This document shows positions 25,715 through 63,585 of a DNA stretch of 64,000 nt, one piece after another; within the stretch, counting starts at the first letter, position 1, and the number at the start of each line of letters is the position of its first letter. The notes under the pieces were generated by a model, which saw nothing but the letters and a program-made list of their open reading frames with translations, was not told the origin of the DNA and did not search any database. Source of the DNA: Diadema setosum (Eukaryota); the NCBI RefSeq assembly GCF_964275005.1, contig NC_092698.1:37744597-37808596 (forward strand), read 5' to 3'. The translations under genes were made by a program, and so were the position numbers.

Positions 25715-25830
25715 ATGTGTGCGCGAGCGAGGGTGTGGGAGGGGTTTTTCCCCCTTGTGGCCTCCCACGGTAGGGAGCTTTTTCAATTTTTAGCTCTTAA
25801 TGGTGCGATCAGGTGCATACTTAAGAGACT
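25715..25830 (+). repeat. Solo partial copy of the roughly 270-bp unit found in the 59.5-61.7 kb tandem array (gagcgagggtgtgggaggggtttttcccccttgtggcctcccacgg...).
   Basis: Similar by eye to the array unit; includes the gggagggg..cccctccc palindromic core. Confidence 0.4.
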
Positions 25831-35884: not shown

Positions 35885-35894
35885 GCACCGGCGT

Positions 35895-35928
<34 letters not shown>

Positions 35929-37296: not shown

Positions 37297-37610
37297 CGTG
37301 TAAGCGGGGGCGGGGGGGGGGGGGGGGGGGCCTTGACCTTGACTTGACACCCCCCGGTCCCGCAGCCCCCCCCCCCCCCTCCTACACTGAAAAACGTTCC
37401 GCGGCCCCTGTCTTGAAAGTGTAACTGTGTGTCCAATGTATCTGAAGTGTTTCATGATTTTAATCATAGTGACTTAATTTTCGCTGTGTGTGGGATGGGG
37501 TTGTTCGTGGTTGTTTGGATCTAGGGTCATTGTTATCTCCCCCCCCCCCCTTCCTTGGCGATAAAAATCTGGGGGCGGGGAAGTTATCTTTTCTTCTTTT
37601 TTCCACGTTT

Positions 37611-38453: not shown

Positions 38454-38858
38454 ATGCCTGCACTAAGAACTGTGATTCTCAGTGTATGCATCGCGCTGAG
38501 CCTAGTTACCAGCACGGATGCAGCCACTGCCGAGAAGATCGGTTCGCCAACTATCACTCTGCCATCTGGAGCAAATCTAACGGGCATCACGAGGCTGTAC
38601 AATGAATCAGACTTCCTCAATCTTACCAAGCCCATCGATTCCTATCTCGGCATCCCTTTCGCCGTGCCTCCAGTGGGCGATCTCCGCTTTGAAGACCCGC
38701 AGCCGTACACGATCATGGAGGACTACGACGCAACAGAACATCGGGCTATATGTCCCCAGATGAGCCCCGTCCGTCACGTACCGGTGGTGGGTCCCAAGGT
38801 GGGACGAGACGTATCAGAGGATTGCCTTTACCTGACCATTTACTCTCCGTCACCAAAG
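38454..38858 (+). CDS. Carboxylesterase type-B/cholinesterase-like gene 1, exon 1 (135 codons). It carries a signal peptide (MPALRTVILSVCIALSLVTSTDA) and the EDCLYLTIY motif.
   Basis: The ATG is at 38454. The donor is aag|gttaga at 38859, in phase 0. The homologous exon of gene 2 is also 405 nt. Confidence 0.85.
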
Positions 38859-39013
38859 GTTAGAAATAGTATTGTGCATCTATCTATGAATCTATGAATC
38901 TTCTTTCTTCAAAGTTACAGTAATTCCATGTGTTCTCTGCACAGGAACACTGCAATGTCGATTTAATCGGATCATAATCATGTAGGCAATTCAAAACATA
39001 AGCGTCATCTTCG

Positions 39014-39014
<1 letters not shown>

Positions 39015-39074
<60 letters not shown>
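39015..39074. repeat. (CA)30 microsatellite in intron 1 of gene 1.
   Basis: Read directly. Confidence 0.95.
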
Positions 39075-39077
<3 letters not shown>

Positions 39078-40097
39078 CTGCAAACTCTGTGTGCGTTGTT
39101 ATCATTGTTGAACATTTTTATAAGTTTCATGATAAAGTAATACCCAAGGAACTTTTTACCCGTTTCTGCACGCTTTCAAATCCCAAATGAAACTCATCTT
39201 TTGATTTGACAAGTTTTGTGACAATGTCTGATGATTCAAACTTTATCACATGCACTATATAAATCGAAGATTAGCTGAGGATTTTTGTACTTCTTGTGTT
39301 TGCAAGAATAGCCTGAAGTAAATCATTTTAAAGCATTTCAGAAACATCACCTTCTTAAGCTATCTTTTGATCGTAACGCCGCGGTGGTACACGGCGTGTT
39401 GCCTGCTGTACAAGTTATTCTATTGATTAATGAATTCTCTTATGTCTCACCAGATGCTTTAATAAAGATAAAAGAACAACAAAAATATAAAAAACAACAA
39501 AAACCCCAACAACAAAAAGCAAAACCCCAAACCAGCAACTCATAGCACAAAAAATACCCATAGACTGATAAACTCGCACATCGAGTTAATCTTCAATCAT
39601 TTTAATCTTTAATCATTTTAATCATAAACTATTTGTATAAACTCTTAAGTAATCTAATGGCTAATCATGTCGAAACATGCATACATGTAATGAAATAGAT
39701 GTATGAAATATTGAACGCAATTCAACGCATTTTTTCTTACTGTCGATTGGAGGATTATTCGTTTCTCCTCAGTTCTGTCATGACCACTCAATAAATCAAT
39801 TCCTCTATCTTTAACATACGTTTTTCTTCCCTTATAAACCTCAACCAATAATTACATTGACTGCGATAAACTGAGCAAAATTAAGTGTGCAGACTCTTAA
39901 AGGTTTACTTAATTCCAAAAAAGCGAAGAATTCTAAGATTTCACATGTGATCAACCACAAGCACTGCCCGAAAAAAAAAAAAGAAAGAGCACGAGTTTGA
40001 CAGCTGTGCGAGATGCGTATGAGTAAGCGTGAGATGTATGTTGGTTGAGTTTAGACTAACAATTTACTTGACGCATCTGTCGTCATCCCATTGATAG

Positions 40098-40260
40098 CCC
40101 ACCACACCCGTACCTGTCATGGTGTGGATCCACGGAGGGGGGTACGCCGTCGGTGCGGGATCGGGGATCATTTACCAACCCATCCCACTCGTCGCCATGT
40201 CCGACATCATCGTCGTCAACCTCAACTACCGACTCGGCGTCTTTGGCTTTCTGACCACAG
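40098..40260 (+). CDS. Gene 1 exon 2 (163 nt), encoding PVMVWIHGGGYAVGAG...NYRLGVFGFLTT(G). This is the oxyanion-hole region.
   Basis: The acceptor is ttgatag|CCC. The exon ends in phase 1 at a probable GC donor (CAG|gcaagc), at the exact position where the paralogue has CAG|gtactt. Confidence 0.75.
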
Positions 40261-40395
40261 GCAAGCACACATTATGCACTACATGGCAAGGGAGTGGAAT
40301 GAAAATGTGTCGATTATTTAGAAATATGATTTCTTGGTGTTGATTCTATTTAAAAAAAAAAAAAATCTCGTACAAAATTAATGTATACAATGATT

Positions 40396-40752
40396 TGGCT
40401 CAGTCGGGAGCTCGTCACGACTCCCAATCTAAATGACCCGGGTTCGATTCCCAAGTCTAATTGGAAAATGTTATAGTTGTGTGTAATCATACCGTACTCT
40501 CTATAGTGAGAGGCAAAACACTCTGTCCCTCGGATAGGACGATAGAATGGAGGTCCCGTAAGTGAAAGAGCCACAACTAATGCAGGTAAAAGATCCCGCT
40601 TCATTCATCCATCGAAAAGAGCAGGGTGCATCACCCGGTGAAGTGGTCCGTCTCACGAACTTGACCCTATGGAAGACAACCTACAGTGCAGCTGAATATG
40701 GACTATCCAGCCATCTTCTCAGATGAAAATGAAACAAACAAACAAACATTTG
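40396..40752 (+). mobile_element. tRNA-derived SINE, family 2, in intron 2 of gene 1. The head is tggctcagtcgg...gggttcgattccc, with a perfect B box, and the tail is (CAAA)n.
   Basis: It has an A-box-like TGGCTCAGTCGG and a B box GGTTCGATTCC, and ends in gaaacaaacaaacaaac. Its 3' end recurs as a reverse-complement copy at 58215-58306. Confidence 0.6.
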
Positions 40753-40852
40753 CCACTGACATGTCAGACGAATACGTAGAACTCTGATAACGATACGACA
40801 TTTGGACACAGTGTTTCTTGTATAGCGTCATATTTGCTTCTTTATCATACAG

Positions 40853-40930
40853 GAGATGACGTTGTGACTGGCAACCAGGGAATGATGGATCAAGTTTTGG
40901 GTCTGAAGTGGGTTCGTGACAATATCGCAG
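40853..40930 (+). CDS. Gene 1 exon 3 (78 nt), encoding GDDVVTGNQGMMDQVLGLKWVRDNIA.
   Basis: The acceptor is catacag|GA and the donor is gcag|gtgagc at 40931. It is phase 1 to phase 1. The paralogue exon is also 78 nt. Confidence 0.85.
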
Positions 40931-41642
40931 GTGAGCGTTTTCAGTGTTGTTCTTGCTCAATATTGGCTCTTTGAAGGAAGTTTAAATCTGTGTTGCTTTA
41001 TAAGGACGAGAAGGTAAAGATTTAAGTGTCTTGTGTTCGACCTACGGCAAGAAGGCCACTTCTTCTAACTCGTCGATGCGCCAGAAAACCTTCGGTCCTG
41101 AATCGGCGTCTTTCGGCTATTAAACCTTCTCGACCTTAACAAGACGCTAAGGTGAAATTCAATACCGAGTACTGTATTCTTCTCATTCCACGTTTAAGAT
41201 TCCGTAATCGGTATTCCTTCAATCTAGGTGGAATAGACCTGAGAGCAACAAATAACTATACATGTATGTTTACAGACCGATAAAGGTATGTCAAGGCACG
41301 CAGAAAGAGGCATGACTTTTTAGGTGTCTCCCTATTCATTCATGTTCATAAAATTTCTCCTCTTTAGCGAGATTTCTCCAACAAATCGTCAATTGAATTC
41401 AAATTAAATTCACTCTCCATTTTTTGTTTCAAATTTTCATTATATTTCTTTATCTTATTTCGTCAACAGCTTTTTTTTTAATGTTTTAAAATAAGAGAAA
41501 AGATAAAGGACCAAAACATTCCAGACGAATTCTTCACGACAAATTACGAACAAAGTTCCATAGAAGGATCATTCAGTCATAAAAGAGAGAGAGAGAGAGA
41601 AAAAAGCCTTCTATCTGGGAGGAAAATTGTGTAACACTGTAA

Positions 41643-41813
<171 letters not shown>

Positions 41814-42248
41814 TGAAAACCACTTGGAATGTAGCCGTTTGGATGCCAGTGACATGGGGTTACAAGCTGTGCAGGGAAGAGAACCTCCCGCGTGAATATT
41901 TGTCATGGTTGGCTTTGAATTCCTCCAGCCTTCCAACAATATCTAAGGAACTCTAGCTGAAACTAAGTACTTCTGAATAGGGACACCATGGTATAGCAAC
42001 AAGCACGTAGTGTAATTTGTATTGTTTTTACATACACCATTCTGATTCGGCAAAGAAATGAGTAAATGAATCAATTATTCACTTCAACTTAGTCACACCA
42101 TCACTGATTATATGTGTGACAATGTAGTTGATACATCTTCTCTTTTCTCTTTTCTCTCAATTGAATGAATGTCAAATAACTTTCTGATAACTTTCGAATC
42201 CATGACATTTTATTTTTCTCCCGACCTGGACCCCCTTCTCCATGGTAG

Positions 42249-42413
42249 AGCGGCAACGCCATTTGTCCATGGGCGTGGTCAACCAATGAGGGCGCCACCG
42301 CAGCACATCGAGAGCTGGCGGTACAGGTGGGGTGCGACCAAACAGACAGTTCGGCAATGGTGGAGTGTCTACGTGGCGTGGATATGGACACTTTGATAAG
42401 AGAGCAGATCTTG
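42249..42413 (+). CDS. Gene 1 exon 5 (165 nt), encoding SGNAICPWAWSTNEGATAAHRELAVQVGCDQTD...REQIL.
   Basis: The acceptor is ccatggtag|AGC and the donor is ttg|gtaaga. It is phase 0 to phase 0. The paralogue exon is also 165 nt. Confidence 0.8.
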
Positions 42414-42835
42414 GTAAGAAATCGCTATGGGAACTAATATACAAATTTATTATGAATTCTAATTTCGCTGTTCCTTCTGTTTTCTGTATACACACTCAGA
42501 TACCTACAAATTACAATACTGTATATAATTAACTACACCACTTCCCTGACTACGCTACGAATGCTCATAGGCATTAGTAAAACGTCAATTACAAACATTC
42601 CTCAAAGGGGCCTCGTCAATGCCACTGCACACACAAATACACACAAATACTCACTAGCAAAACTCTAATACCAACATTGTATGTCTGTACTATACACACT
42701 GCATCTTTCATTCGCTATGTTTATTTTCATAAGTGCTGATGAGATGTGCTTCGGATCGTTTCACTCTCTTTCACCCCCTGCTCCATTTTCTAACTCTTTC
42801 TCTCTCACCCTTTCCCTGTTTTTAATTGTGATCAG

Positions 42836-43449
42836 ATGGGAAACGGTGCCTTGTCAGCCCCGGTGGTAGACGGAGACTTCCTACCCTACAACCCGGTGGA
42901 CATGGCGCGACGAGGTCAGTTCCAGGTGGTTCCAACCCTCATAGGAACGAATGAAGACGAGATGTCCAGTGCTGCTATGGCCGTCTTTCCTGGGTCAATA
43001 CTCGATGACCAACCTCCAGTCATGAACATCTCGCTTTTCCGAAGTCTGATTCCCGGTATGGTGTACTACACTCATGCGCCTATTGAGATCGCAGCCGTGG
43101 AGCAGCACTACGTCGACTGGACGGTGGCAGATGACCTCTCAGCTGACCAACTGGACAGCTACATACGACTTGGTACGGATCAGACATTCTCATGTCCTAC
43201 CGAATTCTTTGCGCGGGCTTTAGAAGCGTATGGCACCGAAATTTACCGCTATGAGATGACGCATGACCCGAACTGGTCCGTCTACGCAGGAATTCCGAAG
43301 TGGTTGGGGGCCACCCACGCCGAGGATCTGCAATACGTCTTCGCTTGGGCGCTAAACCCTTGGCTGGAATTCCTCGTCAACCAGACAAACGATGAAAAGT
43401 TCATGTCGATCGAGTTTATGCGATATTGGTCGAACTTCGTAAAATCCGG
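42836..43449 (+). CDS. Gene 1 exon 6 (614 nt). It carries GTNEDEMS (catalytic Glu) and GATHAEDLQYVF (catalytic His).
   Basis: The acceptor is tgatcag|ATG and the donor is tccgg|gtaagc, in phase 2. It matches ORF 42836..43453. Confidence 0.88.
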
Positions 43450-43574
43450 GTAAGCAATGAATACAGTTCAAAATAAAAACAAACAAACAAGCAAAACAAA
43501 CAAACAAGCAAATCAAACAAAACACGACAATCACCACAACCGTGGTGGAAGTTTTCATTACTCGAGTTAGCAGA

Positions 43575-43735
43575 ATCGGATCGTTATCTCCAAGGTTTAA
43601 TCCGAAAATGAAATGAAGTTCGTTATTCCTAAAATAAAAAAAGGTTCGTTATTTCTAAGGTTTGTTATTCCAAAAGGTCGTTAATCCGAAGATGAAAAAA
43701 GTACTTAATTCCGAAGGTTCGTTAGAATGCATCTT
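43575..43735. repeat. Minisatellite of about 6 units with motif (A)AGGTTCGTTATTCCGAA, period about 25-30 bp, in intron 6 of gene 1. A related array lies at 49700-49850 in intron 1 of gene 2.
   Basis: Motif recurrence read by eye at both sites. Confidence 0.6.
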
Positions 43736-44845
43736 TTTTCTTACTTAACCTTCTTACATTAATGTATACATGCGTACGCCACAGTAAATTGTTCATAAAA
43801 ATGAATACATTAATGAGTAATTGTTCAATCTGTGTCTGTTACTTTTAAATATCTCAAATGACAGAAGTCACTAAAGTCAAAGGTAAATTTAAGTGTTAAA
43901 GGTATAAATCTACCATTTGCAGATGAAGCAAAAACCCAGCTTTAGTGCTTCAAAATAGTTCTGAAATTTGAGTTAGGGATAGAAACAACCAAAGTAAAAA
44001 TTTGAATCAGTATAATTAATGACGTGTTAAAGGTAGGGAATCCCATTTGCATGCCTTAAATGAAGAGTTGTATAAATACAGTAGTATGTTGAAGAGAGTA
44101 TCATTTTAGAAACTCCCATAAAGTATTGAAAGTGGAAGGTAACATTTAGTACATTTTTATTGACCGTTAGATTTTGAATTGAATATTTTTCGGGGCTCAC
44201 CGTAAATTCCAGTACATTACTAGGCTACCTTTGCAGACCCATGCACTGCATGTGTGTCCATCATGTATATTTTGTGAAGAAAGTTCATCAAAACTTACAA
44301 ACATTTCTATATACATTCTTGCCACACACTCTATATGTTATTACATCAGATCTTATACTTTTAGGTTTGTGTTTATAGATAAAAAAATACAGAAGACTGC
44401 AACAAAAAGGCTTAAGTGTGGCTGACACACAGAACTACTGAGTAGTTGAGTTTTGTGCATTATTCAAATTGTAGATAACTGTTGACTTTCAAATTTCTCA
44501 GCAGTGGCCTAAACAAGTCCCCTGAGGTTCATATTTAATGTTTTGCTGCATTTTGGGAGGTCTGTAAAAGGTATCCCCTACCTTTAAGTGTTGTTAAATA
44601 TACAAAATGTGAACAACAGTTATTATTGAAATGTTTCTAGATCAAACCGTCTACAGTTATGGCTTATTGAGAAAAATATATTGATGTCTCCTTATATTTT
44701 AGGCTTTATTGCAAAATTTTCACATGGTAGAATGTTTTGTGATACAACTGACCTACACATATGTATCGAATGTGATATTTCGAACAATTTTAAATCACTG
44801 CCCCCAAAGGTAATCTGTACCTTTAATGCCTTATAATGCAATCAG

Positions 44846-45015
44846 GAACCCCAACGAACCGGCAGAAAACCAAGCCTACCCGGACTGGCCACAGTACACT
44901 TTGCCTGGTCAGGATTACAAGAAACTTTCACTCGACATGGACAACGATCGGGCAATGCGGGCGTCATCATGTGCTTTCTGGCTCAGGTATATGCCGGGGC
45001 TACACACCGAAGCAG
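44846..45015 (+). CDS. Gene 1 exon 7 (170 nt), encoding NPNEPAENQAYPDWPQYTLPGQDYKKLSLDMDNDRAMRASSCAFWLRYMPGLHTEAG.
   Basis: The acceptor is caatcag|G and the donor is gcag|gtatag. It is phase 2 to phase 1. Confidence 0.85.
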
Positions 45016-45353
45016 GTATAGGATACGTCTTTCGTCAACACCCCTTCACTGTCTCAGAATGATGCCAATAGCACCCTAGACTGTGTCCAAGATACTTGAT
45101 CATTATGACACTTGTGATATTTGGAAGTATGAGATGCCTGCAATCTTGCCATCTATCTAAGATTGCTTAAAATGTTTAATTGTTTCGTCTCATCTATGCA
45201 CTGAACTACTATAATTGAGACTAAATCTATCCACAAATTAATATCTCGTGAAATCTTCCGATACAATTGTGCGGCTGAACATTATGATTTGTTCTGAGAT
45301 GTTCAACTGCCCTTATAAACCTATTCATGTTCATATGGACATTTTTATTTCAG

Positions 45354-45487
45354 CTCCAATTGAGGACGTGTACGAGCAATGGCAGGAGGACTATGCGAAC
45401 TGGCGTGACATAGACATGCCTAGCTGGTCTACAGAGTTCGAGGAATACAAGGCTAACAACCCTACTTGTCCCACAGCAACGCCGTGA
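45354..45487 (+). CDS. Gene 1 exon 8 (terminal), encoding APIEDVYEQWQEDYANWRDIDMPSWSTEFEEYKANNPTCPTATP followed by a stop. This is a Trp-heptad plus Cys tail (T-peptide/WAT-like).
   Basis: The acceptor is ttatttcag|CT. The TGA stop is at 45485-45487. The total CDS is 1848 nt, or 615 aa. Confidence 0.8.
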
Positions 45488-49231: not shown

Positions 49232-49636
49232 ATGCCTTCACTAAGAATTTGGATTCTCAGCGCTTGCGCTGCCCTGAGTCTAATTACTGGCACGGAGGCA
49301 GCTTCCGCCGAACCGATTGGCGCGCCAACTGTCGCCCTCCCATCTGGAGCAACACTAACGGGCATCACGAGGCTGTACAATGAATCTGGCTTCCTCAATC
49401 TTAACAAGCCCATCGACTCCTATCTCGGCATCCCTTTCGCCTGGCCTCCAGTAGGCGATCGCCGGTTTAAAGACCCAGAGGAATACACGATCACGGAGCA
49501 CTACAACGCAACAGAACATCAGGGCATATGTCCTCAGACGAGCCCCTTGGATGGTCTCCTCAATGGCAGTTTCGAGATCGGCAGGGATGTCGACGAGGAC
49601 TGCTTATATCTCAGTGTCTACACTCCGTCACCAAAG
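49232..49636 (+). CDS. Esterase gene 2 exon 1 (135 codons). It has a signal peptide (MPSLRIWILSACAALSLITGTEA) and is about 70% identical to gene 1 exon 1.
   Basis: The ATG is at 49232 and the donor is aag|gtagga at 49637. Confidence 0.8.
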
Positions 49637-50749
49637 GTAGGAAATCTACTGCGTAGATATCGCAACAATTTATTCATAATAAAGAAGTTGTAATGTAATT
49701 GGTTTGGTTACAGATCGTTATTCTGAAGGTTCGTCATTCCGAAGGTCTGTTAATCCGAAAATAAAAGAAGGTTATAACTGTTATTCAGAAGGCCCGCTTA
49801 TCCGTAAACGAAATAAGATCGTAATCTCTAAGGTTCGTTAGATGTCGTCTTTGCATTTTCGAACCAACAGACCTTATTTGATTTTCATTGATTTGAGAAT
49901 ACAAGCGTTCCACACTGTGGATCTTTTCATTACGTTACAAAAACCACCTCCCTGCAAAACCTGAAGCAGAAATATTCCTCTGATGCGTGTCTTAATTGGT
50001 GGTGAAAAAGTCATCTCTTCTTTCATAGTCGGATTTATCATTATGCACCATGCTGTTTATTTCATGGTCGACTTTATATGTGATTTATATATACATGGTA
50101 ATATTTGATATTAAACAAGCGAATATTATCGCATGCACATTATATTATGCAGACAACACGGTATATTTTTTTTTTCATAAATTGGTCCAACCTATATCTT
50201 GAAAGAGTTTACGAAGGACTGTGTTTTAGCAAACTGATATTGATCTGAAGAGGACAACGAGATTTTTGATTTGCTCAGTTTTTTGTTAGCAAAGTGGAAA
50301 CTACCTTTTGTATTAAGTTATGTGAAAAAACAGTCAAACATAAAGAGACTGTCAATTACATGGGAGTTACGCTTGATCAACAGTTGAAGTGGTAATGTTC
50401 GCGTCAATGCTATACTTTGGTCGATTCTTTGCACTGAAAGCAAAATACTGTTCAGTTTTTACTGTGCAAACCAAATTAGTCGATTCCAAATTATATTTAA
50501 TTCGAATGATATAATGAGCATCTGTAGTTTGTATTCGGGTGAATTTCATTAACACAAAAAATCTAACGTTTTGATTACGGGAATGGGACAATATGGGGGC
50601 ATGTTAGAAAATCTTTGCTCACTATTGTAATGTTTTTTCCTTAGAGGTTCGGAGATCGTTCTACTCATATTGAAATTAATGTTTTATAATAGTTGTGCCA
50701 TTTTTCATTAATTTCTGTGACTGGACCACTCGGCAGATCTGCTGTTTCA

Positions 50750-50998
50750 TTGTGTCTTTTATGTTTTGCGTCTATTGGTATTATGTTGTATTTATATCTG
50801 GTTGAATTTGTATTACCTTATTATACCATATGAAACAACAGAGCAAGATCTGTGCATAATTCATAAACAAAATTAGAAATACGACTGGATTGACGTCAAT
50901 CCAGTCGTATTTTTAATTTTGTTTATGAATTATGCACAAATTTAACCAGATACAAATACAACATAATACCAATAGACGCAAAAATATAAAAGACACAA
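50750..50998. repeat. Long, near-perfect palindrome (hairpin) centred on TGACGTCA at 50891-50898. The arms are about 104 and 145 bp, and the left arm has a 41-bp insert. It lies in intron 1 of gene 2.
   Basis: The left arm (gtgtcttttatgttttgcgtctattggtattatg...cgactggattgac) is the reverse complement of the right arm (gtcaatccagtcg...cataataccaatagacgcaaaaatataaaagacac). Confidence 0.7.
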
Positions 50999-51440
50999 CA
51001 TTTTGCCTTCCGTCCTGGCAGATTTATATATTGGAAAAATATGATTTGTGTATACATATACACTTGTATAAATAATATTTGATTTTGAGGGGGAAATGAA
51101 GATGTCTAACAGCTAAAAGCGATTTCTTAAATACGTTGTGATCCAATCCCTATAATACCTCTACGACTGTTACTTATTGAATTATGATTTTGATTCAAAA
51201 CTGCCGAAAAATTCAGAAATAGCTCATTGTTTAGTTGATTTACTTCTGTCCTCTGATTACAATTGTACTCAATGGATAACTGAGCAAGCATAACGTTATG
51301 AATACCTAATCAAATATTTATGTACACTGTATTTTAATAAGTGTGCGTGTGTAAGAGTAGGAGTGAGGGATGGGTGTATAGACATAACATTAACACGCAA
51401 AAGTTGGGAAAATGATATGATATTTCGTTTGTCATTTCAG

Positions 51441-51603
51441 CCAACTTCTCTCTTACCAGTCATGGTGTGGATTCACGGGGGTGGTTACAATGGTGGTGCA
51501 GGGTCGGCACCTTGGTATCAGCCCATGGTACTGGTGGCGTACTCCGATATTGTTGTTGTGAACCTCAATTACCGCCTTGGTGTCTTTGGGTTCTTGACTA
51601 CAG
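51441..51603 (+). CDS. Gene 2 exon 2 (163 nt), encoding PTSLLPVMVWIHGGGYNGGAGS...LGVFGFLTT(G).
   Basis: The acceptor is gtcatttcag|CC and the donor is acag|gtactt. The length and phase are the same as in gene 1. Confidence 0.82.
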
Positions 51604-52025
51604 GTACTTTATGTTCTATGTTGACGTCACATATAACAATAAATCATTTTATTCATGGTTATAGAACACTTACCTACCGCTGAGGGCTCAAGGCCATGTT
51701 TCACTAACATGGGAACTATGGAGTCGAACAATGAACCCAAAGTTGGGACAGGTTCAGATCAGATCCATATTGTTGGGAAGGATGCATAGACATTCAAGAT
51801 GTATTCTAGTGTGTGGTGTAAGGTGTGCGCAAGACTAACTTCTGAGGACTGCTTTATCCCAAAAAAGTCCCTAGGATCAGCTGAATTAAACTTAAGATTG
51901 GTTTTTAGAGCGAAGTGAAACAACCCCTGGTCTTAAGAGGGCATTGTCATTGATATCATTACCAAACCATTACGTTGATTTCAACATCTTGATTCAAAAA
52001 GACAAACAGAGAAAAAACAGAAACG

Positions 52026-53700
52026 ATGTACAAGGACAAGCGGGAGGATAGAACCCACGTTCTCTTGTTTAGTTCACAGTCTAGTCTTATATGTGGAAAA
52101 TCTAATGAAGTTTTTGATTATGTACAAAACGAAATTAGAGAAAAAATGCAGAACATCGACCGATTACTGGTCCGCCCGGAGTTCAAAGTTTCCATATATG
52201 TCCGGTATCTGTTACCTGCCATGAGATTTATGATGAGTGTCCATACACTGAATAAATCACATCTTGATGTATTAGACTCTATGACAGACGGCTACCTAAA
52301 ACAGTGGTTAGGAATCCCAAGTCGAGGGGGAAACATTGCAACCGTACATCTCCCGCAAGGGATGGCCATCCCGCGCTTTTCCGATATTTATTAGAAAGCC
52401 AATTGTTCAGCTTATACCAGATCAAGACTAGCTGGTGACGGCGTAGTTAACCACGCCCTAGACTCCACGCTGGAACGCGAGTCGAGGTGGACAACAAAGC
52501 AGTCCACTGTAACCGTCTGTCACAGTGTCCATGAGAAAGCCGTAAGTGAGCTTAGAGTACAGACCAATAGCTCCTGGAAGAAGACAATAAACAAAATACT
52601 AGAGGATGATGTTGTAAACTACTGGAAAGAAAAGATAGAGCCACTCCTTTGCCAAGGAAAATTTACAGAACTATTACTGCTCGAGAGAGAAAACCTCACA
52701 TGGAAATCCATTATGTTTAATCTCCCTCGAAATGTTTTAAAGTTTGCAGTTAACGCGTGTATTGATTCCCTACCCTCTTATTCAAACCTATCCCGTTGGG
52801 GAAAGAGACTAAGCAATAAGTGCTCCTTCTGTCCAAATACAACAGGGACCCTATACCACATTCTGTCACACTGTCCATCGATGTTAGAAAGGTATACTTG
52901 GCGACACAATAATGTTCTTAAGGTTATCCAGACCATTATAATTAGCACAGAATTTAAGAATTTCGATGTTTATTGTGACGTAGGGGGCCACAGGAGGCAC
53001 AGTATACCCCCGCACATCCTGGTAACTAACCAACGCCCAGATCTTGTTGTCGTATGGCACAATCCCAAACAGATTATGTTAGTAGAGTTAACAGTTCCTT
53101 CTGAGAGCAACATAAAAGACGCTCACAAAAGGAAGATAGAGAGGTACAAAGACCTGGTTCGAGATCTGAATGAAACCGATTACGACACCTCATTTGAAGC
53201 GATTGAGGTCGGACAAAGGGGATTCATTGATGCTGAAAACAAAACTCGAATAAAGCAAATCCTCGCCAAGTGTAATTGTAACAAGAAACCAAAGGAGCTG
53301 TACAATGACCTCAGCAAGGCTGCACTTCTAGCTTCTTTTGTCATATTTTACAGCAGACACGAACAAACATGGTCTGATGCACCGTATATGTCGGTATAAT
53401 CAGGTTTTGTATACAGTACCAAATCCCAATTCAATATGTTATCAGGATTAACATATTGCTGATATTATGGTATTGTTGAAAATGTTATGTGATAATATAT
53501 TGTATAGACAGGTAAATTATTTGAAGCTGAATTGTATGTTTGATGTATTGAAACGTTTTCTGACTGTGTGATATTATTATTTTTGGCAACATTAGTAGTA
53601 TTTGCACACACCTATGATGTTGGAAAGTCAAATCCGTCCAACACATGGTCAAATTCAAAAGTTGTATTGATACATAAATCTGGTGATTTAAGTTTGTTTG
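52026..53700 (+). mobile_element. 5'-truncated, decayed 3' portion of a non-LTR retrotransposon ORF2 in intron 2 of gene 2. It contains an RT-thumb-like region, a CCHC zinc finger and a PD-(D/E)XK restriction-like endonuclease domain, pointing to the R2/NeSL/CRE/HERO group. A 3' UTR follows.
   Basis: ORFs 52026..52394 and 52713..53399 share one frame and are separated by stop codons. The thumb-like region reads IYVRYLLPAMRFMMSVHTLNKSHLDVLDSMTDGYLKQWLGIPSRGGN. The zinc finger reads KCSFCPNTTGTLYHILSHCPSMLERYTWRHNNV. The endonuclease region reads RPDLVVVW...IMLVELTVPSESNIKDAHKRKIERY, giving the PD...E..K pattern. A roughly 110-bp duplicate of the 52085-52205 segment lies at 54320-54430. Confidence 0.6.
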
Positions 53701-55051
53701 AAATTTTTTTTTGATCGATTTCCCTCACATTTTGTATAAGTGAGATATTTCATTAAATTTTGGCAGATGAAATTATTCTGTGATGTGAAATGTATCTCAT
53801 TGCCTTTTTTTTTTCTTTGCTACAATTTACCCAGTTGCTTAGTAGATTCAGGGCACCCTCCTGGTAGATTACATCAATTGATTGTAGAGCATGCTTCAGA
53901 GATGTGTGTCAGGCCCTTTGTGGGAACATTTTTTTTTTTTTTTTTTTAGGCGACCATCCATCCCCAGTATATTACTTTATTGTTTTAACCCTCTCCTGGA
54001 ATATATATATATTTTTTTCAATGTAAACATGGTTATGACCTCAACGGACAAAATATTATTAATACCCTTTATGCAGACGATTAAACGTCATTACCAAAGT
54101 AAACAAAAAGTATATATAGATACACATTTCATCAGAATTCAACTCTCACTCTCAGTTCATGGGTTTATCTCTATAGTATGCAAAATGTTAAAGTTTGTTG
54201 ATTAGTATAGTATATGTGTAATATTTTATATTTGTATATGTGATATGGAATTAGATATACCGAAAGAAGGCTCATTACAATGTTTAGGACCACGGATATA
54301 TATTTTTTTTTTCAATGGGAAAGTAATGGAGTCTTCGATTTTATACAAAACGAAATCAGAAAATAAAAAAGCAGAACATTGACTGATTATTGGTCCGCCC
54401 GGAGTGTGAAGTTTCTATAAACGTCCGACATATATATATATATTTTAAAGAATTGTTATAAATGTTATAATGATTGTTGGTGTTAAATATTATTGTTGAT
54501 ACTGGCACATTAATCTCATGGATGTTATTTGTATTGTGCACTGTTCAATGTGTACCTGCAATTATCTAAAGAGATAATTGACCTGGTTATGTATAAACAT
54601 TTTTTTGAATAAAGAAATGATTCAATCAAAAAATACCAGTGATGCTAATTGTAGGAACATTCATTCTTACATTTCAATCTGATCAAATAAGTTTATAGAT
54701 GATAAATTTGTGTTCGTAAGGGTCTAATGCTTCTCTCTGAGTGACAGCGCCATCATGCTCCCGTTTATCATTGCAAATGCTATGACATTATTGTCTTCAT
54801 CATTGCGAGATCTCTGGTGATATTGACGAAAGCATTTTAGATCATGGTAAAGAACACTATTTGACAGTAAGTATTGTACGTTAATCATTCAATATTTTTT
54901 AGTTTACCAGCTGTACGACTTCTCCATTTTGTTCATGTGTGTAGATGCAACTTTAGAGTACTCGTAGAATGTATTTTAATGTAGGAAATAGTAATGATCG
55001 GAAGTAATTGAGTTCTCAGCACTATTATATGGCTGGTGGTATATCCAACAG

Positions 55052-55129
55052 GTGATGACGTCATGGCGGGGAACCAAGGAATGATGGACCAAGTGATGGG
55101 ATTGAAATGGGTTCAGGAAAACATCGAAG
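55052..55129 (+). CDS. Gene 2 exon 3 (78 nt), encoding GDDVMAGNQGMMDQVMGLKWVQENIE.
   Basis: The acceptor is caacag|GT and the donor is gaag|gtgatg. Confidence 0.82.
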
Positions 55130-55272
55130 GTGATGAGAACGACTATTCTTAATTTCTTAAAGGGATCATACAGTTTCGGTTGAGACCTAATTTCGGGTTT
55201 CTAACATTTTTGGTGAAATAATGAGAAACCTCTAATGAAATATGAAAGAGCATGTAATTCTATGAGGAATTC

Positions 55273-55418
55273 AACATTTATTTGATGAAAATTGGTTTTG
55301 AAATGGCTGAGATATCAAAAAAAAAAAAAGAGTGATTCTAATAAAGTGTGGGACCCACACTTTATTACGATTGCTTTGTTTTATTTTGTTTTTGGATGTT
55401 TCAGTCATTCCAAACCCG
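55273..55418. mobile_element. Small MITE-like element with about 28-bp TIRs (GATGAAAATTGGTTTTGAAATGGCTGAGAT at one end, gtttcagtcattccaaacccgattttcatc at the other), an internal poly-A and the palindrome tgtgggacccacac. A related solo end with flank is present at 19095-19210.
   Basis: The inverted repeat and the shared flank aaataaac(t/g)ttgaat...cttaaaat were seen at both loci. Boundaries are uncertain. Confidence 0.35.
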
Positions 55419-56172
55419 ATTTTCATCAAATAAACTTTGAATTCCTCTTAAAATGGTATGCTCTGTACTATATCATAAGTGTTTCTTTTTTTTTTTTTTG
55501 GTATCTCGCAAAAAGTTTAAAGCCCAATTCTCATCTCCACCAATAATGTACTATCCCTTTAATTTCCTAGCTTATTTTCCTCCCTGTTGGCTTAAAGGAA
55601 CTATCGAAATATAAATGAATGTTGACTTATGTTGGTTCATGATACGCTCAACATCAATTATGACGACTGTGACCAAATGAATATCTAAATTCGTGTCATA
55701 TATTTCATAATGATATTATACTATATATTTCTTCACAATGATATATGGCACATATTTCGATATTCTTTCGATTAGATGTTATAATTCAATACAAATCAAC
55801 ATGGATTTGCATTGTGTGGTCTGAAATAAAACGACTCTTTATTATATTGAATTTGATTTTATATGCTTATTGCTTCTATTAGCATTCAAAAATTCATCTT
55901 CAGGTACATCACTCATAATTATCATAGTTTTCTTCCGTGGTCACCCTGGCATTTTTAATCAATATTGATCCCCTTGCCATTATTGAATTTGATATCTTCG
56001 AGAAAATTAAAATTCAACTAAAAATTGAGTGGAATGATGGCATTGGCTCGATGATTGTAAAAAAATCTGACAGTTTAAATCATTCGATGATATCTTGGCT
56101 GTTCATTTTCCGTATTCACCGATGATCTTTCATGTTCATGTCCCGAATTTACGTATAACATGTGTAATATGA

Positions 56173-56523
<351 letters not shown>

Positions 56524-56710
56524 TAAAATCAAATCCCAACCTAAAAAGCATCTGTTCCTATATCACACTGAGGACTATTACTGCAATCTATATTGTTCGG
56601 AACAATTGAATTCTTTATCTCGTATGTTTTTTGTTGTTATTTGTTATTTGCCATTTTTTTTTTTCTGTTGCCATGTGTGAACATGCGTATATATCTCTCT
56701 TTTTCATTTT

Positions 56711-57553
56711 TATACCCCCGCCAAACGAAGTTTGAAGGGGGTATATGGGAATCAGCGGACGGTCGGGCGGTCGGTCGGGCGGTCGGTCGGTCGGGCGGTC
56801 GGTCCGTTGCAAATCTTGCGTCGCGAACTACTTCCTCAGTTTTCAACCGATTCCCATAAAACTTGGCACAGATGTGTGCCTTGGGTTGTAGATGTGCAAG
56901 ACGTATTTTTTGACAGTACCCAAAAGTACGTTGCCATGGTAACGGCATATTATGGGCAAAAATGGGTACAAATCTTGCGTCGCGAACTCCTCCCACAGTT
57001 TTTGATCAATTTTTATGAAATTAGGTGCAGATGTTCATCTGAATATGTTAATGTGCAAGACACATATTTCCGCAGTGGCAAAAAGTGCGTTGCCATGGTA
57101 ACGGCATGTTATTGGCAAAATATAGGGCAAAATGCTTCATGGCAAAACTGCTTCATCAGTGTTCTTCCAATTCTCATGGAATTCATATTGAATGTTTGTC
57201 TTAGGATATAGGTCAGCATGACACATTTCTTGACAGTTACAAAAAGTATGTTGCCATGGTAACACGCTCACATATTATGAGCCAAAATGATGGAAAATTT
57301 TGCGTTGCAAACTACTTCCTCAGTTTTTGCCCAATTTCCATGAAACTTGGTACAGATGTGTGCCTTTGGTTGTAGATGTGCAAGACGCATTTTTCGACAG
57401 TGCCCGAAAGTACGTTGCCATGGTAACGGCATATTAATGGCAGAAGATCAAGGAAAGATCTTGCGGATTTAACTACTTCCTCAGTTTTTTGACCAAAGCT
57501 TATGAAATGTTGTTTTGACCAAAGCTTATGAAATGTTGTTTGGCGGGGGTATA
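56711..57553. mobile_element. Non-autonomous TIR element in intron 4 of gene 2. It has 16-bp TIRs (TATACCCCCGCCAAAC and GTTGGCGGGGGTATA), a (GGGCGGTCGGTC)n tract, and about 4.5 internal tandem units of roughly 160 bp.
   Basis: TIRs read at 56711-56726 and 57538-57553. The unit ...gttgccatggtaacggcat... recurs near 56930, 57095, 57255 and 57415. ORFs 56732..57211(+) and 56637..56996(-) are repeat artefacts. A (T)28 tract follows at 57573-57600. Confidence 0.6.
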
Positions 57554-57987
57554 ACCAGTCGCTGTAGCGACATTTCTAGTTTTTTTTTTTTTTTTTTTTT
57601 TTTGAAGGGCCATGAACACCGAAAGGTGGACCTGTGCGCTATAATAGCCACTATTATTATTATCATTTTTTTAGAGGTACGCAAGTTCAGCGAGGGTAAG
57701 AGAAACAGCTCAGATATGAAAGGTCGAGATTGAGAGTTACTCAGGGAGGTGGGAACCCCCTCCCTGCTCAGTCGCTTATACATGTTTCAAATTTACAAAT
57801 GTATGCGAATGTAGACTTCGTAGGGGTAGTCTCTTTTTACAAATATGATGTGGGTTATGAGGCAGGGTGGCGATAATTTTGAAGGAGATCTCTAAGAAAG
57901 ACTACTACCAGATTGACCAGATTTAACTGTTACCATGTATGACCTTTACCTTGATTCCCTGTTTTTATTAAACCCTCTACTCCCCAG

Positions 57988-58152
57988 AGCGGGAACGCGA
58001 TCTGTCCCTGGGCGTGGACAACAAACAGCCGGGCAACCGAAGCGCACCGTCAGTTGGCCGAACGAGTGGGCTGCAACCAAACAGACAGTGCAGCAAGGGT
58101 GAACTGTTTGCGGAACGTGGAAATGAATGACCTGATATTGGAGCAGTTTAGA
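57988..58152 (+). CDS. Gene 2 exon 5 (165 nt), encoding SGNAICPWAWTTNSRATEAHRQLAERVGCNQTD...LEQFR.
   Basis: The acceptor is ctccccag|AGC and the donor is aga|gtaaga. Confidence 0.8.
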
Positions 58153-58214
58153 GTAAGAAGGCGGCTAGCGGTATATAACTACAGATCCAATTTATTTCCT
58201 TGAGTAATGGTGAC

Positions 58215-58306
58215 TTGTGATCGCAGAGGAAAACTTTGTTTTGTCTTGTTTTATTTGTTCATTTTCCATCTGAGAAGATGGCTGGATAGCCCATATTCAG
58301 CTACGT
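58215..58306 (-). mobile_element. 5'-truncated fragment (3' end plus tail) of the family-2 SINE, in intron 5 of gene 2.
   Basis: The reverse complement matches 40688-40752 (agctgaatatggactatccagccatcttctcagatg plus a CAAA-rich tail). Confidence 0.4.
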
Positions 58307-58702
58307 TAAGCTGGCCTTTATTTAGTGAAACAGTCTAATTTTGCTACATGAAGTATCACCTAGATAATGAGAGATCAATGATATTTTGACATTTACGTTC
58401 TTAGTTACTCTTGCACTTGAGCCTTTGTTGAGAATATATCCTTCCAATAAATTGTTCTTGGTTTGGAAGCCGCTTTTTGTACATTTCTGTCACGGTAGAA
58501 CACTCCTTGCCTACCCGGATTATAGTAGGCCTAATAACAGTGCAATAACATCATTCACTGCGACTGAAGGTGGACAAAGAAATCTTCCAATTGATACATG
58601 TGCAGATACTCTGAGGCTACTGTCGGTCAATGTGACATCAAAAAAAAAAATCTCAATTTATTTGAAGTATACCACAGGAAATGTTTCTCTTTCTATCATT
58701 AG

Positions 58703-59316
58703 ATGGGTGATGGCGCTTTGTCGGCTCCCGTGGTAGATGGCGACTTTTTGCCCAACAATCCGGTTGATATGGTTAGACGCGGCCAGTTCCAAGTGGTTCC
58801 TACTTTGCATGGTACAAATGAGGATGAAATGTCCAGTGTCGCCCTCTACATCTTCCCAAGCTCCATTCGAGACGACGATCCTCCAGTTATGAACATCTCT
58901 GTCTTCAGACAATGGCTTCCTGATGTTCTACCCTTTACCGACACGCCGATTGAGATCTCCTCCGTAGAACAGCATTACATCGACTGGACCGTCGCCGACG
59001 ACGAGTCAGCCGACCAACTCGACGGATTCATTCGCCTAGCAACGGACCAGACGTTCGCCTGTTCTACAGAGTTCTTTGCGAGGGCTCTTGAAGCGGCTGG
59101 CGCCACAACGTACCGTTATGAGATGACCCATGACCCCTCCTGGTCTATCTATGGAGGGATTCCAAAGTGGCTCGGTGCAGCACATGCCGAAGATCTGCAG
59201 TATGTCTTCGCCTGGGGACTCAACCCTTACATTGACATTCTCGTGGGGCAGACTGACGAAGAACGACTCATGTCGATCGAGTTCATGCGATACTGGACCA
59301 ACTTCGTGAAATCCGG
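58703..59316 (+). CDS. Gene 2 exon 6 (614 nt). It carries GTNEDEMS and GAAHAEDLQYVF.
   Basis: The acceptor is tcattag|ATG and the donor is tccgg|gtacgc. It matches ORF 58703..59362. Confidence 0.85.
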
Positions 59317-59544
59317 GTACGCAAGAGTATTTCCTTGTTTTGTATTGTTTAAAAATATTTAATTGGCTCACTCAGCTCATTGACGGAAATACCTATAAAT
59401 AATAACAGTTGAAATATCACTTAAAGAGGAAATTACATCTAACTCGACTTCTTATACATTGTACTCTTGAATCAATCAGGAACCCCAACGAACCGGTAGA
59501 AAACCCAGCCTACCCGGATTGGCCACAGTACACCATGCCCGAAC

Positions 59545-62500
59545 CAACGGCGTAGCCAGGATTTCATCTTAGGGGGGGCGGTTAGTCAGCGAGGGAGCGA
59601 AGCGACCGAGCCCGAGCGAGCGGAGCGAGCGAGGGGGGGAGGGTGTGGGAGGGGGGTGTCCCCCCTCCCACGGTAAGAACTTTTTTGCATTTGGATGTTG
59701 AAAATGGTGCAATTTGATGCATGTTTTTGCGCGTTTTATCGACGTGAAACAGTCCCACTTGCATATGGTAGCAGTTTATTTTGATGTAGATTATTATTGA
59801 ACAATTTGCCTATAAAAGGGTATAATTTAGATACACTTCTTGTATTAATTCTTTTCACTGAATATCATGAACGCGACTGAACCCGAGCGAGCGGAGCGAG
59901 CGAGGGGGGAGAGGAGGGTGTGGGAGGGGGGTGTCCCCCCTCCCACGATAAGAACTTTTTGCATTTTGATGTTGCAAATGGTGCAATTTGATGCATGTTT
60001 TTGCGCGTTTTATCGACGTGAAACAGTCCCACTTGTTTAAGATAGCAGTATATTTTAGTGTAGATTATTATTGAACAATTTGCCTATAAAATGGTATAAT
60101 TCAAATATTCTTTTCACTGAATATCATGAACGCGACTGAACCCGAGCGAGCGGAGGGAGCGAGGGGGTAGGGGAGGGTGTGGGAGGGGGGTTTCCCCCCT
60201 CCCACGGTGAGAACTTTTTACATTTTGATTTTGCAAATGGTGCAATTTGATGCATGTATTTGCGTGTTTTAACGACGTGAAACAGTCCCACTTGTTTAAG
60301 ATTGCAGTATATTTTAGAGTAGATTATCATTGAACAATTTGCCTATAAAATGGTATAATTCCAATACACTTCTTGTATTAATTCTTTTCACTGAATATCA
60401 TGAACGCGACTGAACCCGAGCGAGCGGAGCGAGCGAGGGGGTAGGGGAGGGTGTGGGAGGGGGGTTTCCCCCCTCCCACGGTGAGAACTTTTTACATTTT
60501 GATTTTGCAAATGGTGTAATTTGATGCATGTTTTAACGACGTGAAACAGTCCCACTTGTTTAAGATTGCAGTATGTTTTATATCATGAACGCGACTGAAC
60601 CCGAGCGAGCGGAGCGAGCGAGGGGGAGGGGAGGGTGTGGGAGGGGGGTGTCCCCCCTCCCACGATAAGAACTTTTTGCATTTTGATGTTGCAAATGGTG
60701 CAATTTGATGCATGTTTTTGCGCGTTTTATTGACGTGAAACAGTCCCTCTTGTTTAAGGTAGCAGTATATTTTAGTGTAGATTATTATTGAACAATTTGC
60801 CTATAAAATGGTATAATTCAAATACACTTCTTGTATTAATTCTTTTCACTGAATATCATGAACGCGACTGAACCCGAGCGAGCGGAGCGAGCGGAGCGAG
60901 CGAGGGGGTAGGGGAGGGTGAGAGGGGAACCCACCTCCCACGGTGAGAACTTTTTACATTTTGATTTTGCAAATGGTGCAATTTGATGCATGTATATTTG
61001 CGTGTTTTAACGACGTGAAATAGTCCCACTTGTTTAAGATTGCAGTATATTTTAGTGTAGATTGTTATTGATTTGCCTATAAAATGGTATAATTCCAATA
61101 CACTTCTTGTATTAATTCTTTTCACTGAATATCATGAACGCGACTGAACCCGAGCGAGCGGAGCGAGCGAGGGGGTAGGGGAGGGTGTGGAAGGGGGGTT
61201 TCCCCCCTCCCACGGTGAGAAGTTTTTACATTTTGGTTTTGCAAATGGTGCAATTTGATGCATGTTTTTGCGTGTTTTAACGACGTGAAACAGTCCCACT
61301 TGTTTTAGATTGCAGTATATTTTAGTGTAGATTATTATTGAACAATTTGCCTATAAAATGGTATAATTCCAATACACTTCTTGTATTAATTCTTTTCACT
61401 GAATATCATGAACGCGACTGAACCCAAGCGAGCGGAGCCAACGAGGGGGGGGGGGGGGGGGAGGGGAGGGTGTGGGAGGGGGGTGTCCCCCCTCCCACGG
61501 TGAGAACTTTTTGCATTTTGATGTTGCAAATGGTGCAATTTGATGCATGTTTTTGCGTGTTTTAACGAGTTGAAACAGTCCCACTTGTTTAAGGTTGCCG
61601 TATATTTTATTGTAGATTATTATTGAACAATTTGCCTATAAAACAGTATAATTCAAACACACTAGTCTTCTTGTATTAATTCTTACACTGAATATCATGA
61701 ACGCTGTCTGTTCAGCAATCAAACAGAAAAAGCATGCACACGAGGGTGTAGATAGGGGCATATCCCCTCCCACACGAAGGTGATTTTGCGTTTTCAGACC
61801 TGAAATTCAGCGATCTGGTGCAAATTTTTGGTGCAACACTTTTTCATCGAAGTGTTAAAATCACGGAATTTAGCTCTTATTCCGAATGTGCACCATCTGT
61901 GCGTATGTATAAAGTCTAGTGAGGTAGAACTTAGGGGAAGGGGGATTCCCCCTCCCGCTCGCGGAGCTTTTGCGTTTTTAGAATTGAAATAAAGCGATCT
62001 TGGTATAGCCACAGTCTACTTCTTTGCATGGGGGGGGGGGGAACAGGAAGAAGGCGTTGGCGAGTGTTATCTCCACTCTTCCCTTCCGATGGAGCTTGTA
62101 TCTTTTTAAGGCTGAAATTGAGATATCTCGTATACGCATAATAAGCATATTTGATGGAATCAACATTTGGGTAATCAAAACAAAAAAAAAAATGATGGGG
62201 GGGGGGGACTGAGGGAGGAAAGGGTCGATTAAAAGGGGAAATTCCCCTTATACATGAGGGAACCTTCAGTTTTCGGAATATTAGTGAAAAGTCTTGTGCA
62301 CTCAGAATTATTCAGAATTTTTTTTAATCTAAAAAGTGTACTTAGCTAGGGAAAGCGGCAAAGAGGGGGAGGGTTTGGGAGGGGGTATCCCCCTCCCAAG
62401 CACGAGAGATTTTGCATATTTTGAATTGAAATTCAACGATCTGGTGCACACTTTGAGTGAAATATTCAAAAAAATATATCTTATTTGATGAAAGGTTGCA

Positions 62501-62623
62501 AAGGAGACCCGCTTCATGTGCATGCATACAGTATACACGCATTTTTTTTCCCGCCTCCCAACTCCTCGGTCCAAATCTTAGGGGGGGCGACCGCCCCCAT
62601 CGCCCCCCCCTGGCTACGCCAGT
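59545..62623 (+). mobile_element. Copy B of a non-autonomous TIR element of 3079 bp, inserted in exon 7 of gene 2. The TIRs are CAACGGCGTAGCCAGG and, in reverse complement, (C)ACTGGCGTAGCCAGG. The TSD is 7-8 bp, (g)cccgaac. An internal tandem array occupies most of the interior.
   Basis: The left junction is atgcccgaac|caacggcgtagccagg and the right junction is cctggctacgccagt(g)|cccgaacagg. Removing the element plus one TSD restores the exon exactly. No transposase ORF is present. The 61700-62620 portion carries gggaggggg..ccccctccc palindromic motifs shared with 35.9-37.3 kb. Confidence 0.72.
59576..61700 (+). repeat. Tandem array of about 8 units (period 249-289 bp, one unit truncated to 186 bp) inside the element. 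Each unit contains gagcgagcggagcgagcgaggggg...gggagggggg(t)tcccccctcccacggtgagaactttttacattttgattttgcaaatggtgcaatttgatgcatg.
   Basis: Unit starts (motif actgaatatcatgaacgcgactgaaccc) are at 59867, 60116, 60390, 60576, 60848, 61124, 61398 and 61687. ORFs 59582..61584(-) are repeat artefacts. Confidence 0.85.
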
Positions 62624-62949
62624 GCCCGAACAGGAGTATAAGAAACTGTCACTCGACATGGATAATGGCCGAGCAATGAGGGCGTCTTCATGTACTTTCT
62701 GGATAAGATTCATGCCTGGGCTTCATATTCAGGCTGGTAAGAAGCAACATGAGAATGTACCATTCTGCGCCATATCTGTGTGCAATCAGAAATATCTATG
62801 AATCTCCTTCTTGGAGAATTGTTCTGTTTTCCAACGAGAAGAAAGCAGTGGTAATAATACCAAAGGCTCTCCACAATGTACATTGTGATAATTGTGTGGT
62901 GATGTGATGCACATTGGGCCCTGCAAGTGGTATATCGTGCTTTCACGAT

Positions 62950-63300
62950 GACTTTATCAATGTTAGATGAAATAGATAATAATAATAATAATGATAATAA
63001 TATTGATAATAATAATAATAACAATGACAATAATAACAATAATATCAAATAACGACAATTATAATAAGGTTTTCTTTAACCAGGGCCTTTTCAGTGTTGC
63101 CACTGCTCTTATACCAAAGGGCCCTGACATTGTGTTACCCTAGCGTTGCCAAAGTAGCAATTTGTACACCTGAATCAAGAGGTACATGTGGTGTGGGTAA
63201 AAACATCTTGTCTAAGAGGACGTACGAACTCGGTGAGAATCAAACTCGGGTCCTCAGATTGGGATATGAGAGTCTTATCCACTATGCCACGTCGCGCCTC
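62950..63300 (-). mobile_element. tRNA-derived SINE, family 1, in intron 7 of gene 2. The head is gaggcgcgacgtggcatagtggataagactc...gacccgagtttgattctc, and it carries an (ATT)n-rich tail.
   Basis: The reverse complement of 63220-63300 shows an A box (TGGCATAGTGG) and a B-box-like motif. The body and tail align with 22823-23075. The tail, at 62950-63040 on the plus strand, is (ata/att)n. Confidence 0.6.
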
Positions 63301-63451
63301 AACATTTTCTTGACAATGTAAATATTGAATTTTCGACGTTCTGTTATAGGCAGACTACAGGCAGACGTGATGCACAATTCAAAAATCAAGTACAAGATGT
63401 CTTCTGTTTATTCATTTTCTCTAATACCTCATTATTTTGTTCCTTCATCAG

Positions 63452-63585
63452 CTCCAATTGAGGACGTGTACAAGCTATGGCAGGAGGACTATGCGAACTG
63501 GCGTGACATAGACATGCCCAGCTGGTCTACAGAGTTCGAGGAATACAAGGCTAACAACCCTACTTGTCCCACAGCTATGCCGTGA
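63452..63585 (+). CDS. Gene 2 exon 8 (terminal), encoding APIEDVYKLWQEDYANWRDIDMPSWSTEFEEYKANNPTCPTAMP followed by a stop.
   Basis: The acceptor is cttcatcag|CT. The TGA stop is at 63583-63585. The exon is 98% identical at the protein level to the gene 1 tail. Confidence 0.8.

Follow-up and report, generated by a model that had tools for sequence, protein, structure and literature searches.

The stretch analysed here, 64,000 nucleotides of the forward strand of the sea urchin Diadema setosum (assembly GCF_964275005.1, contig NC_092698.1, positions 37,744,597 to 37,808,596; hereafter the window, with position 1 as its first letter), contains two tandem cholinesterase-like carboxylesterase genes, EST1 and EST2, and exon 7 of EST2 is interrupted by a non-autonomous transposon with terminal inverted repeats (TIRs). 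The insert is bounded by a duplication of its target, it is absent from the corresponding exon of related genes and species, and it is carried by the very sequence from which the RefSeq protein XP_072174373.1 was derived, where it is treated as an intron. Taken together, these observations favour, with a probability of roughly three in four, an insertion in the D. setosum lineage that generated a null allele of EST2, which the RefSeq gene model masks. The loss of EST2 function would follow from the reading frame that the insertion leaves behind.

The two genes and the parts of exon 7 that matter for the argument are located as follows.
38454-45487, + strand: gene 1 (EST1), the intact tandem paralogue, 8 exons, 615 amino acids
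44846-45015, + strand: EST1 exon 7, unbroken at 170 nt, the paralogous empty site
49232-63585, + strand: gene 2 (EST2), cholinesterase-like carboxylesterase, 8 exons, exon 7 interrupted; corresponds to XP_072174373.1
59480-59544, + strand: 5' piece of EST2 exon 7, 65 nt, ending in ...ATGCCCGAAC, 100% identical to Diadema antillarum
62632-62736, + strand: 3' piece of EST2 exon 7, 105 nt

A first-pass annotation, made from the sequence alone, had proposed identical exon lengths for the two genes, and exons were placed by testing these lengths against GT/GC-AG boundaries. The test returned one solution for nearly every exon and agreed with the proposed series of 405, 163, 78, 119, 165, 614, 170 and 134 nt in both genes; EST1 exon 4 and EST2 exon 5 had two candidates each, and the candidate lying over the paralogue match was chosen. 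EST1 translates into 615 amino acids with no internal stop. In EST2, exons 1-6 and 8 have the EST1 lengths and canonical splice sites, and no stop, frameshift or broken splice site was found beyond the interruption, as expected from the earlier description of an otherwise intact paralogue whose exon 7 alone is split. When the two pieces of exon 7 are joined by taking out 3,087 nt (the element plus one copy of the flanking repeat), the exon returns to 170 nt, with the junction ATGCCCGAACAGGAGTAT, and the gene to a 615-amino-acid open reading frame (ORF) that aligns with EST1 without gaps at 76% identity; the colinear restoration anticipated by the first-pass annotation is thus exact. EST1 exon 7 runs uninterrupted through its 170 nt and does not end at the position corresponding to 59544.

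The host gene belongs to the Type-B carboxylesterase / cholinesterase family (PF00135, precomputed for the RefSeq protein), with which it shares the catalytic triad, the HGGG oxyanion hole and the conserved cysteines. Acetylcholinesterases are its best solved relatives, and the label 'Acetylcholinesterase-like' is only an automatic name. On alignment to the acetylcholinesterase chain 5hq3, the serine of the GESAG motif, the glutamate and histidine of the triad, the HGGG segment and both C-terminal cysteines find their counterparts, so that the term 'catalytically complete' used earlier holds for the restored gene. The catalytic serine, glutamate and histidine and the HGGG segment are all intact and lie upstream of the insertion. 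Two further observations concern the introns of these genes. The donor of EST1 intron 2, at 40261, is GC (CAG|GCAAGC), with a GT in the counterpart intron of EST2, and intron 2 of EST2 contains a 334-amino-acid ORF (52395-53396, + strand) with a weak zf-RVT match (E = 2e-5, below the Pfam cut-off), probably a retroelement fragment.

The anatomy of the insert is that of a cut-and-paste element.
59538-59544, + strand: left copy of the target-site duplication, CCCGAAC, with identity running back to 59536 (TGCCCGAAC)
62625-62631, + strand: right copy of the target-site duplication, CCCGAAC
59545-62624, + strand: non-autonomous TIR transposon, 3080 bp on the 7-bp reading of the duplication
59545-59560, + strand: left TIR, CAACGGCGTAGCCAGG, 16 nt
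62609-62624, - strand: right TIR, reverse complement CACTGGCGTAGCCAGG, 16 nt
59553-59555, + strand: first in-frame stop (TAG) on read-through, within the left TIR
59545-61689, + strand: eight tandem units of 185-319 bp (about 275 bp), 87-98% identical
61690-62608, + strand: 3' region of about five degenerate G-rich-palindrome modules

The element lies between the first and second base of a Gln codon. On re-inspection, the direct repeats described as (g)cccgaac form a perfect duplication of 7 bp, CCCGAAC, which can be extended to 8 bp (GCCCGAAC) or 9 bp (TGCCCGAAC); accordingly, the element measures 3080, 3079 or 3078 bp, and the 3079 bp given in the first-pass annotation corresponds to the 8-bp reading. 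The inverted ends reported there are also present, CAACGGCGTAGCCAGG and CACTGGCGTAGCCAGG matching at 14 of 16 positions, and a search for the terminus motif with up to three mismatches returned four matches in the window, arranged as two pairs, against 0.08 expected from shuffled sequence. Within the tandem array, the palindrome GGGAGGGGGGTGTCCCCCCTCCCAC is found in seven of the eight units, with only a degenerate version in the unit at 60855-61130, and the motif CACG(G/A)TRAGAA(C/G) in all eight, six of which have a GT donor-like site in it. The 3' region holds a polypyrimidine tract followed by a TAG acceptor-like site ending at 62581. Pfam searches of the element's ORFs detected no domain and no transposase, and an Rfam search of the element gave no match.

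Comparison with related sequences establishes that the interruption is a derived state. The EST2 orthologue of D. antillarum, which lies downstream of the EST1 orthologue on one contig, has an unbroken exon 7 of 170 nt reading ...ATGCCCGAACAGGAG... / ...ACCATGCCCGAACAGGAGTAT..., with the target present once, and the flanking repeat in D. setosum is therefore a true target duplication. Exon 7 is likewise uninterrupted at the insertion point in EST1 and in the Lytechinus variegatus orthologue. Given these empty sites, the insertion arose in the D. setosum lineage.

The consequences can be read from the sequence of the disrupted exon. A non-autonomous class II transposon entered EST2 exon 7 after the split from D. 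antillarum, duplicating 7-9 bp of its target. Translation through the junction gives ...YTMPEPTA followed by a stop, in accordance with the read-through product that had been proposed; transcripts entering the element would thus meet a TAG after three foreign codons. The truncated product is predicted to comprise 537 native residues plus PTA and to end 78 residues short of the restored protein, thereby losing the cysteine of RASSCTFW, which aligns with the cysteine of the acetylcholinesterase C-terminal disulfide and which we take to close the equivalent bond here, its partner being the one established for the family. Splicing from the strong GT donors within the element would retain the TAG. 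Since both read-through and the use of internal donors would keep the stop, the allele is most likely null, and, with over 3 kb separating the stop from the last exon junction downstream of it, mRNA decay is plausible. This situation shows no essential difference from textbook null alleles caused by transposon insertion, with which it has in common the exonic position of the insertion, the premature stop and the intactness of the rest of the gene.

The RefSeq model gives a different picture of the same locus. Two substitutions, Q537P and E538T, are all that separates XP_072174373.1 from the element-free protein (MPEPTYKK versus MPEQEYKK), and one additional feature accounts for them.
59550-62636, + strand: 3087-nt GC-AG 'intron' implied by XP_072174373.1

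With this intron, the EST2 model agrees with the RefSeq protein at all 615 residues. The donor, ACG|gcgtag, is located within the left TIR and the acceptor, caggag|TAT, 5 nt beyond the right repeat; because the P and T of XP_072174373.1 come from the first bases of the element, the annotated assembly must carry the insert. A search table had listed the protein at 100% identity, and it was considered as an element-free allele, which would have been an intraspecific empty site; exact comparison, with its two mismatches, rejected this. The model spans the element by means of a weak GC-AG intron, which keeps the frame, replaces QE by PT and makes the protein look intact.

The quality of these splice sites was evaluated with an approximate, literature-based matrix. 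On this scale, the 14 real donors of EST1 and EST2 score 0.5-7.1 bits, the sole real GC donor among them (CAG|GCAAGC) reaching 7.1, and the annotated GC donor at 59550, at -1.7 bits, is weaker than all of them. At position -3 of the acceptor, all 14 real sites have C or T and the annotated one has G (GAG); it is preceded by two CAG acceptors, at distances of 3 and 14 nt. The element itself contains eight GT donors (4.3-4.6 bits); six of them are ACG|GTRAGA in the tandem units, and all eight are downstream of the in-frame TAG at 59553-59555. Precise removal of the insert is offered by no GT-AG, GC-AG or AT-AC pair, the ten equivalent placements reading TG-AG, GC-GT and so on to CA-AC. Furthermore, the Q537 replaced in the RefSeq model is conserved without exception in the urchin homologues retrieved and in 5hq3. 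The RefSeq intron would accordingly be best regarded as a frame-preserving construct guided by protein homology, not as real splicing.

How far other explanations can account for the same data has to be weighed against this reading. The first-pass annotation had itself offered a newly created intron as its alternative, and that part stands to the extent that RefSeq annotates 59550-62636 in this way, although the poor splice signals favour the inactivation that it had put first. Under such an introner-type gain, GC at 59550 would pair with AG at 62636 to yield a functional esterase with QE changed to PT, and XP_072174373.1 is exactly the product expected, the 3087 nt removed preserve the frame, EST2 has no other lesion and transposon-derived introns have been reported in S. 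purpuratus (PMC12130899). We consider it improbable in view of the -1.7-bit donor, to be compared with 7.1 bits for the genuine GC donor, the GAG acceptor preceded directly by two CAG sites, the stronger GT donors within the element, the substitution of an invariant Gln and the position of the other copy of the element between genes. Quite improbable, too, is the more specific claim that an intron has been caught at birth in an animal, namely a metazoan introner event in which the donor would be taken from the element's own TIR and the AG from beyond the duplication; if it were true, the esterase would be functional with a two-residue change, the ancestral state being kept in the sister species. 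A partial rescue of EST2 by some other cryptic splicing, leaving a hypomorph, draws on 37 GT/GC-AG combinations near the junctions that keep the frame without stops, for example from the GT at 59552 to 62581, where a long pyrimidine tract precedes TAG, with 19 residues added in frame. It is likewise improbable, as the donor at 59552 scores -7.2 bits and every donor of real strength is downstream of the in-frame TAG.

Two explanations remain. That an old intron persisted here while the paralogue and other urchins lost it is favoured only by an annotation that names it an intron; three independent empty sites (one in an outgroup genus), the perfect target duplication, the inverted ends, the second copy between genes and the lack of a canonical splice pair for precise removal all speak against it, and the empty sites together with the target duplication refute it. 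Extremely unlikely as well is a misjoin of repeat sequence into the exon during assembly: the repetitive, G-rich interior is of a kind that can trouble assemblers, but an artefact would not make a precise 7-9-bp target duplication around matched inverted ends, and the RefSeq-annotated sequence carries the element's first bases, encoding P and T.

For the favoured insertion and null allele, several points weigh in the opposite direction. Transcripts might in fact be spliced at the GC-AG sites or at another frame-keeping pair, such as GT 59552 with AG 62581, which would add 19 amino acids; the splice matrix is approximate, and several real EST donors score low too; the homology-driven origin of the RefSeq intron presumes a particular behaviour of the annotation pipeline; and the assignment to the hAT superfamily, discussed below, is tentative, with a duplication that may be 7, 8 or 9 bp. 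In addition, no hAT transposase partner was seen in the sequence covered here, and the element's own ORFs have no domain.

Considering that the RefSeq intron coincides with a mobile element, a comparison with introners is warranted. These intron-generating transposons have been reported in the sea urchin S. purpuratus (Gozashti et al., PMC12130899). The EST2 insert resembles them in being a non-autonomous TIR element in a coding exon that is annotated as an intron, and in that the annotated intron is as long as the element plus the duplication; this intron, 59550-62636, is absent from D. antillarum, L. variegatus and EST1. However, introners supply or co-opt good GT-AG sites, whereas the donor annotated here is a very weak GC and the acceptor a GAG, and introners are represented by many spliced copies, whereas the other copy in the window is intergenic and splicing of the exon copy is predicted only by the RefSeq model. 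Usable splice sites provided by the element or its duplication, the hallmark of introners, were not detected with the approximate scoring. The likeness to the S. purpuratus introners thus appears to be limited to the annotation as an intron.

As for its classification, the element is most likely a hAT-like class II (cut-and-paste) transposon. hAT elements end in (C/T)A(A/G)NG (YARNG) and generate an 8-bp target-site duplication. With non-autonomous members of that superfamily the element shares short TIRs beginning with CA, a duplication compatible with 8 bp and the lack of coding capacity, so that it would need mobilisation in trans. Its left end, CAACG, and the terminus CAGCG of a metagenome contig described below fit YARNG, whereas CACTG and CACCG do not, the third base being C in three of the four termini in the window. 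With both ends taken as complete, the exon copy has a 7-bp duplication, and an 8-bp reading requires that the terminal G be counted as target sequence. The element is also large (3.1 kb), owing to its internal eight-unit tandem array.

The other pair of termini in the window delimits a second copy of the family, which lies within a larger insertion.
35886-37296, - strand: second, shorter copy of the element family, about 79% identical, 1.4 kb, with one internal unit
35673-37410, unstranded: outer insertion enclosing the second copy, with perfect 15-bp inverted ends (CAGGGGCCGCGGAAC)

This copy, located between genes and the sole other copy in the window, ends in CACCGGCGTAACCAGG ... GCTACGCCGGTG, the same terminus motif as that of the exon copy, and its flanks, CGTTCAAG and CGTGTAAG, match at six of eight positions in an 8-bp register. 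The outer insertion has TCTTG on both flanks, and D. antillarum lacks the block in its entirety; because the second copy is nested in it, that copy lacks a clean empty site of its own. At 25729-25818, a lone core module (G-rich palindrome, CACGGT and T-rich tail) occurs outside any inverted-repeat pair, and the core module may be an independent repeat.

Beyond the window, a metagenome scan with the left terminus matched one contig, the environmental sequence Ga0209780_1116576, which reads CAGCGGCGTAGCCAGGATTTCATCTT at 922-957 and is identical to the element's left end at 33 of 36 positions. Its interior is unrelated to the element, these 36 nt being all that the two have in common, which suggests that the same terminus may be used by another element elsewhere. 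The conserved right subterminal 25-mer matched nothing in a metagenome scan, no member of the family was detected in roughly 75 kb of D. antillarum and 33 kb of L. variegatus sequence, and a literature search for the terminus strings returned chance primer matches only.

The age of the insertion was approached through sequence divergence between the two Diadema species, for which the synonymous substitution rate (Ks) is 0.12-0.14. The ratio of nonsynonymous to synonymous substitution (Ka/Ks) between the Diadema orthologues is 0.14 for EST1 and 0.33 for EST2, and within EST2 it is 0.58 in exons 1-3 (49232-55129) and 0.11 in exons 4-7. Replacement changes in EST2 are balanced between the two lineages (17 versus 14); those derived in D. 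setosum cluster at residues 71-114. These values indicate that EST2 has probably been constrained for most of the time since the Diadema split. Such constraint, together with the lack of any other lesion, points to an insertion that is young relative to the split; the recent origin suggested by the first-pass annotation likewise fits the absence of the element from the sister species and the otherwise undamaged gene. EST2 spans 14.4 kb in D. setosum and about 7.7 kb in D. antillarum, and its D. setosum introns have therefore gained insertions as well.

A separate lesion was observed in D. antillarum. Exon 6 of its EST2 contains a 5-nt insertion, CTAGC, creating the palindrome GCTAGC (GCA_040938485.1, JBFRCO010000562.1, 26274-26278), which causes a frameshift and stops in a gene whose remainder is intact. 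No gene is called at that locus, and no D. antillarum protein more than 76% identical to EST2 was seen among the best hits listed in the protein search. The insertion could be an independent null allele, the footprint of a transposon excision or an assembly error. As an independent frameshift, it would suggest that EST2 is dispensable and may be on its way to loss in Diadema.

Elsewhere in the window, an uninterrupted ORF of 1143 amino acids (9246-12674, - strand) coincides with a higher G+C content (46-49%) and has no Pfam domain.

In biological terms, the event that we favour, the disruption by a mobile element of one member of a multi-copy esterase family, would be routine in a very polymorphic genome. 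Two D. setosum assemblies have been published (PMC11066563, PMC13264686), and the heterozygosity of the genome was given as 2.1% (PMC11066563). The element also illustrates how a satellite-like array can grow within a mobile element, the two copies in the window having one unit and eight. The locus presents a disrupted gene that is shown as intact in the reference annotation, with the transposon labelled as a GC-AG intron. Models of this kind could give rise to false positives in surveys of annotated introns for transposon origin, and could inflate counts of functional genes.

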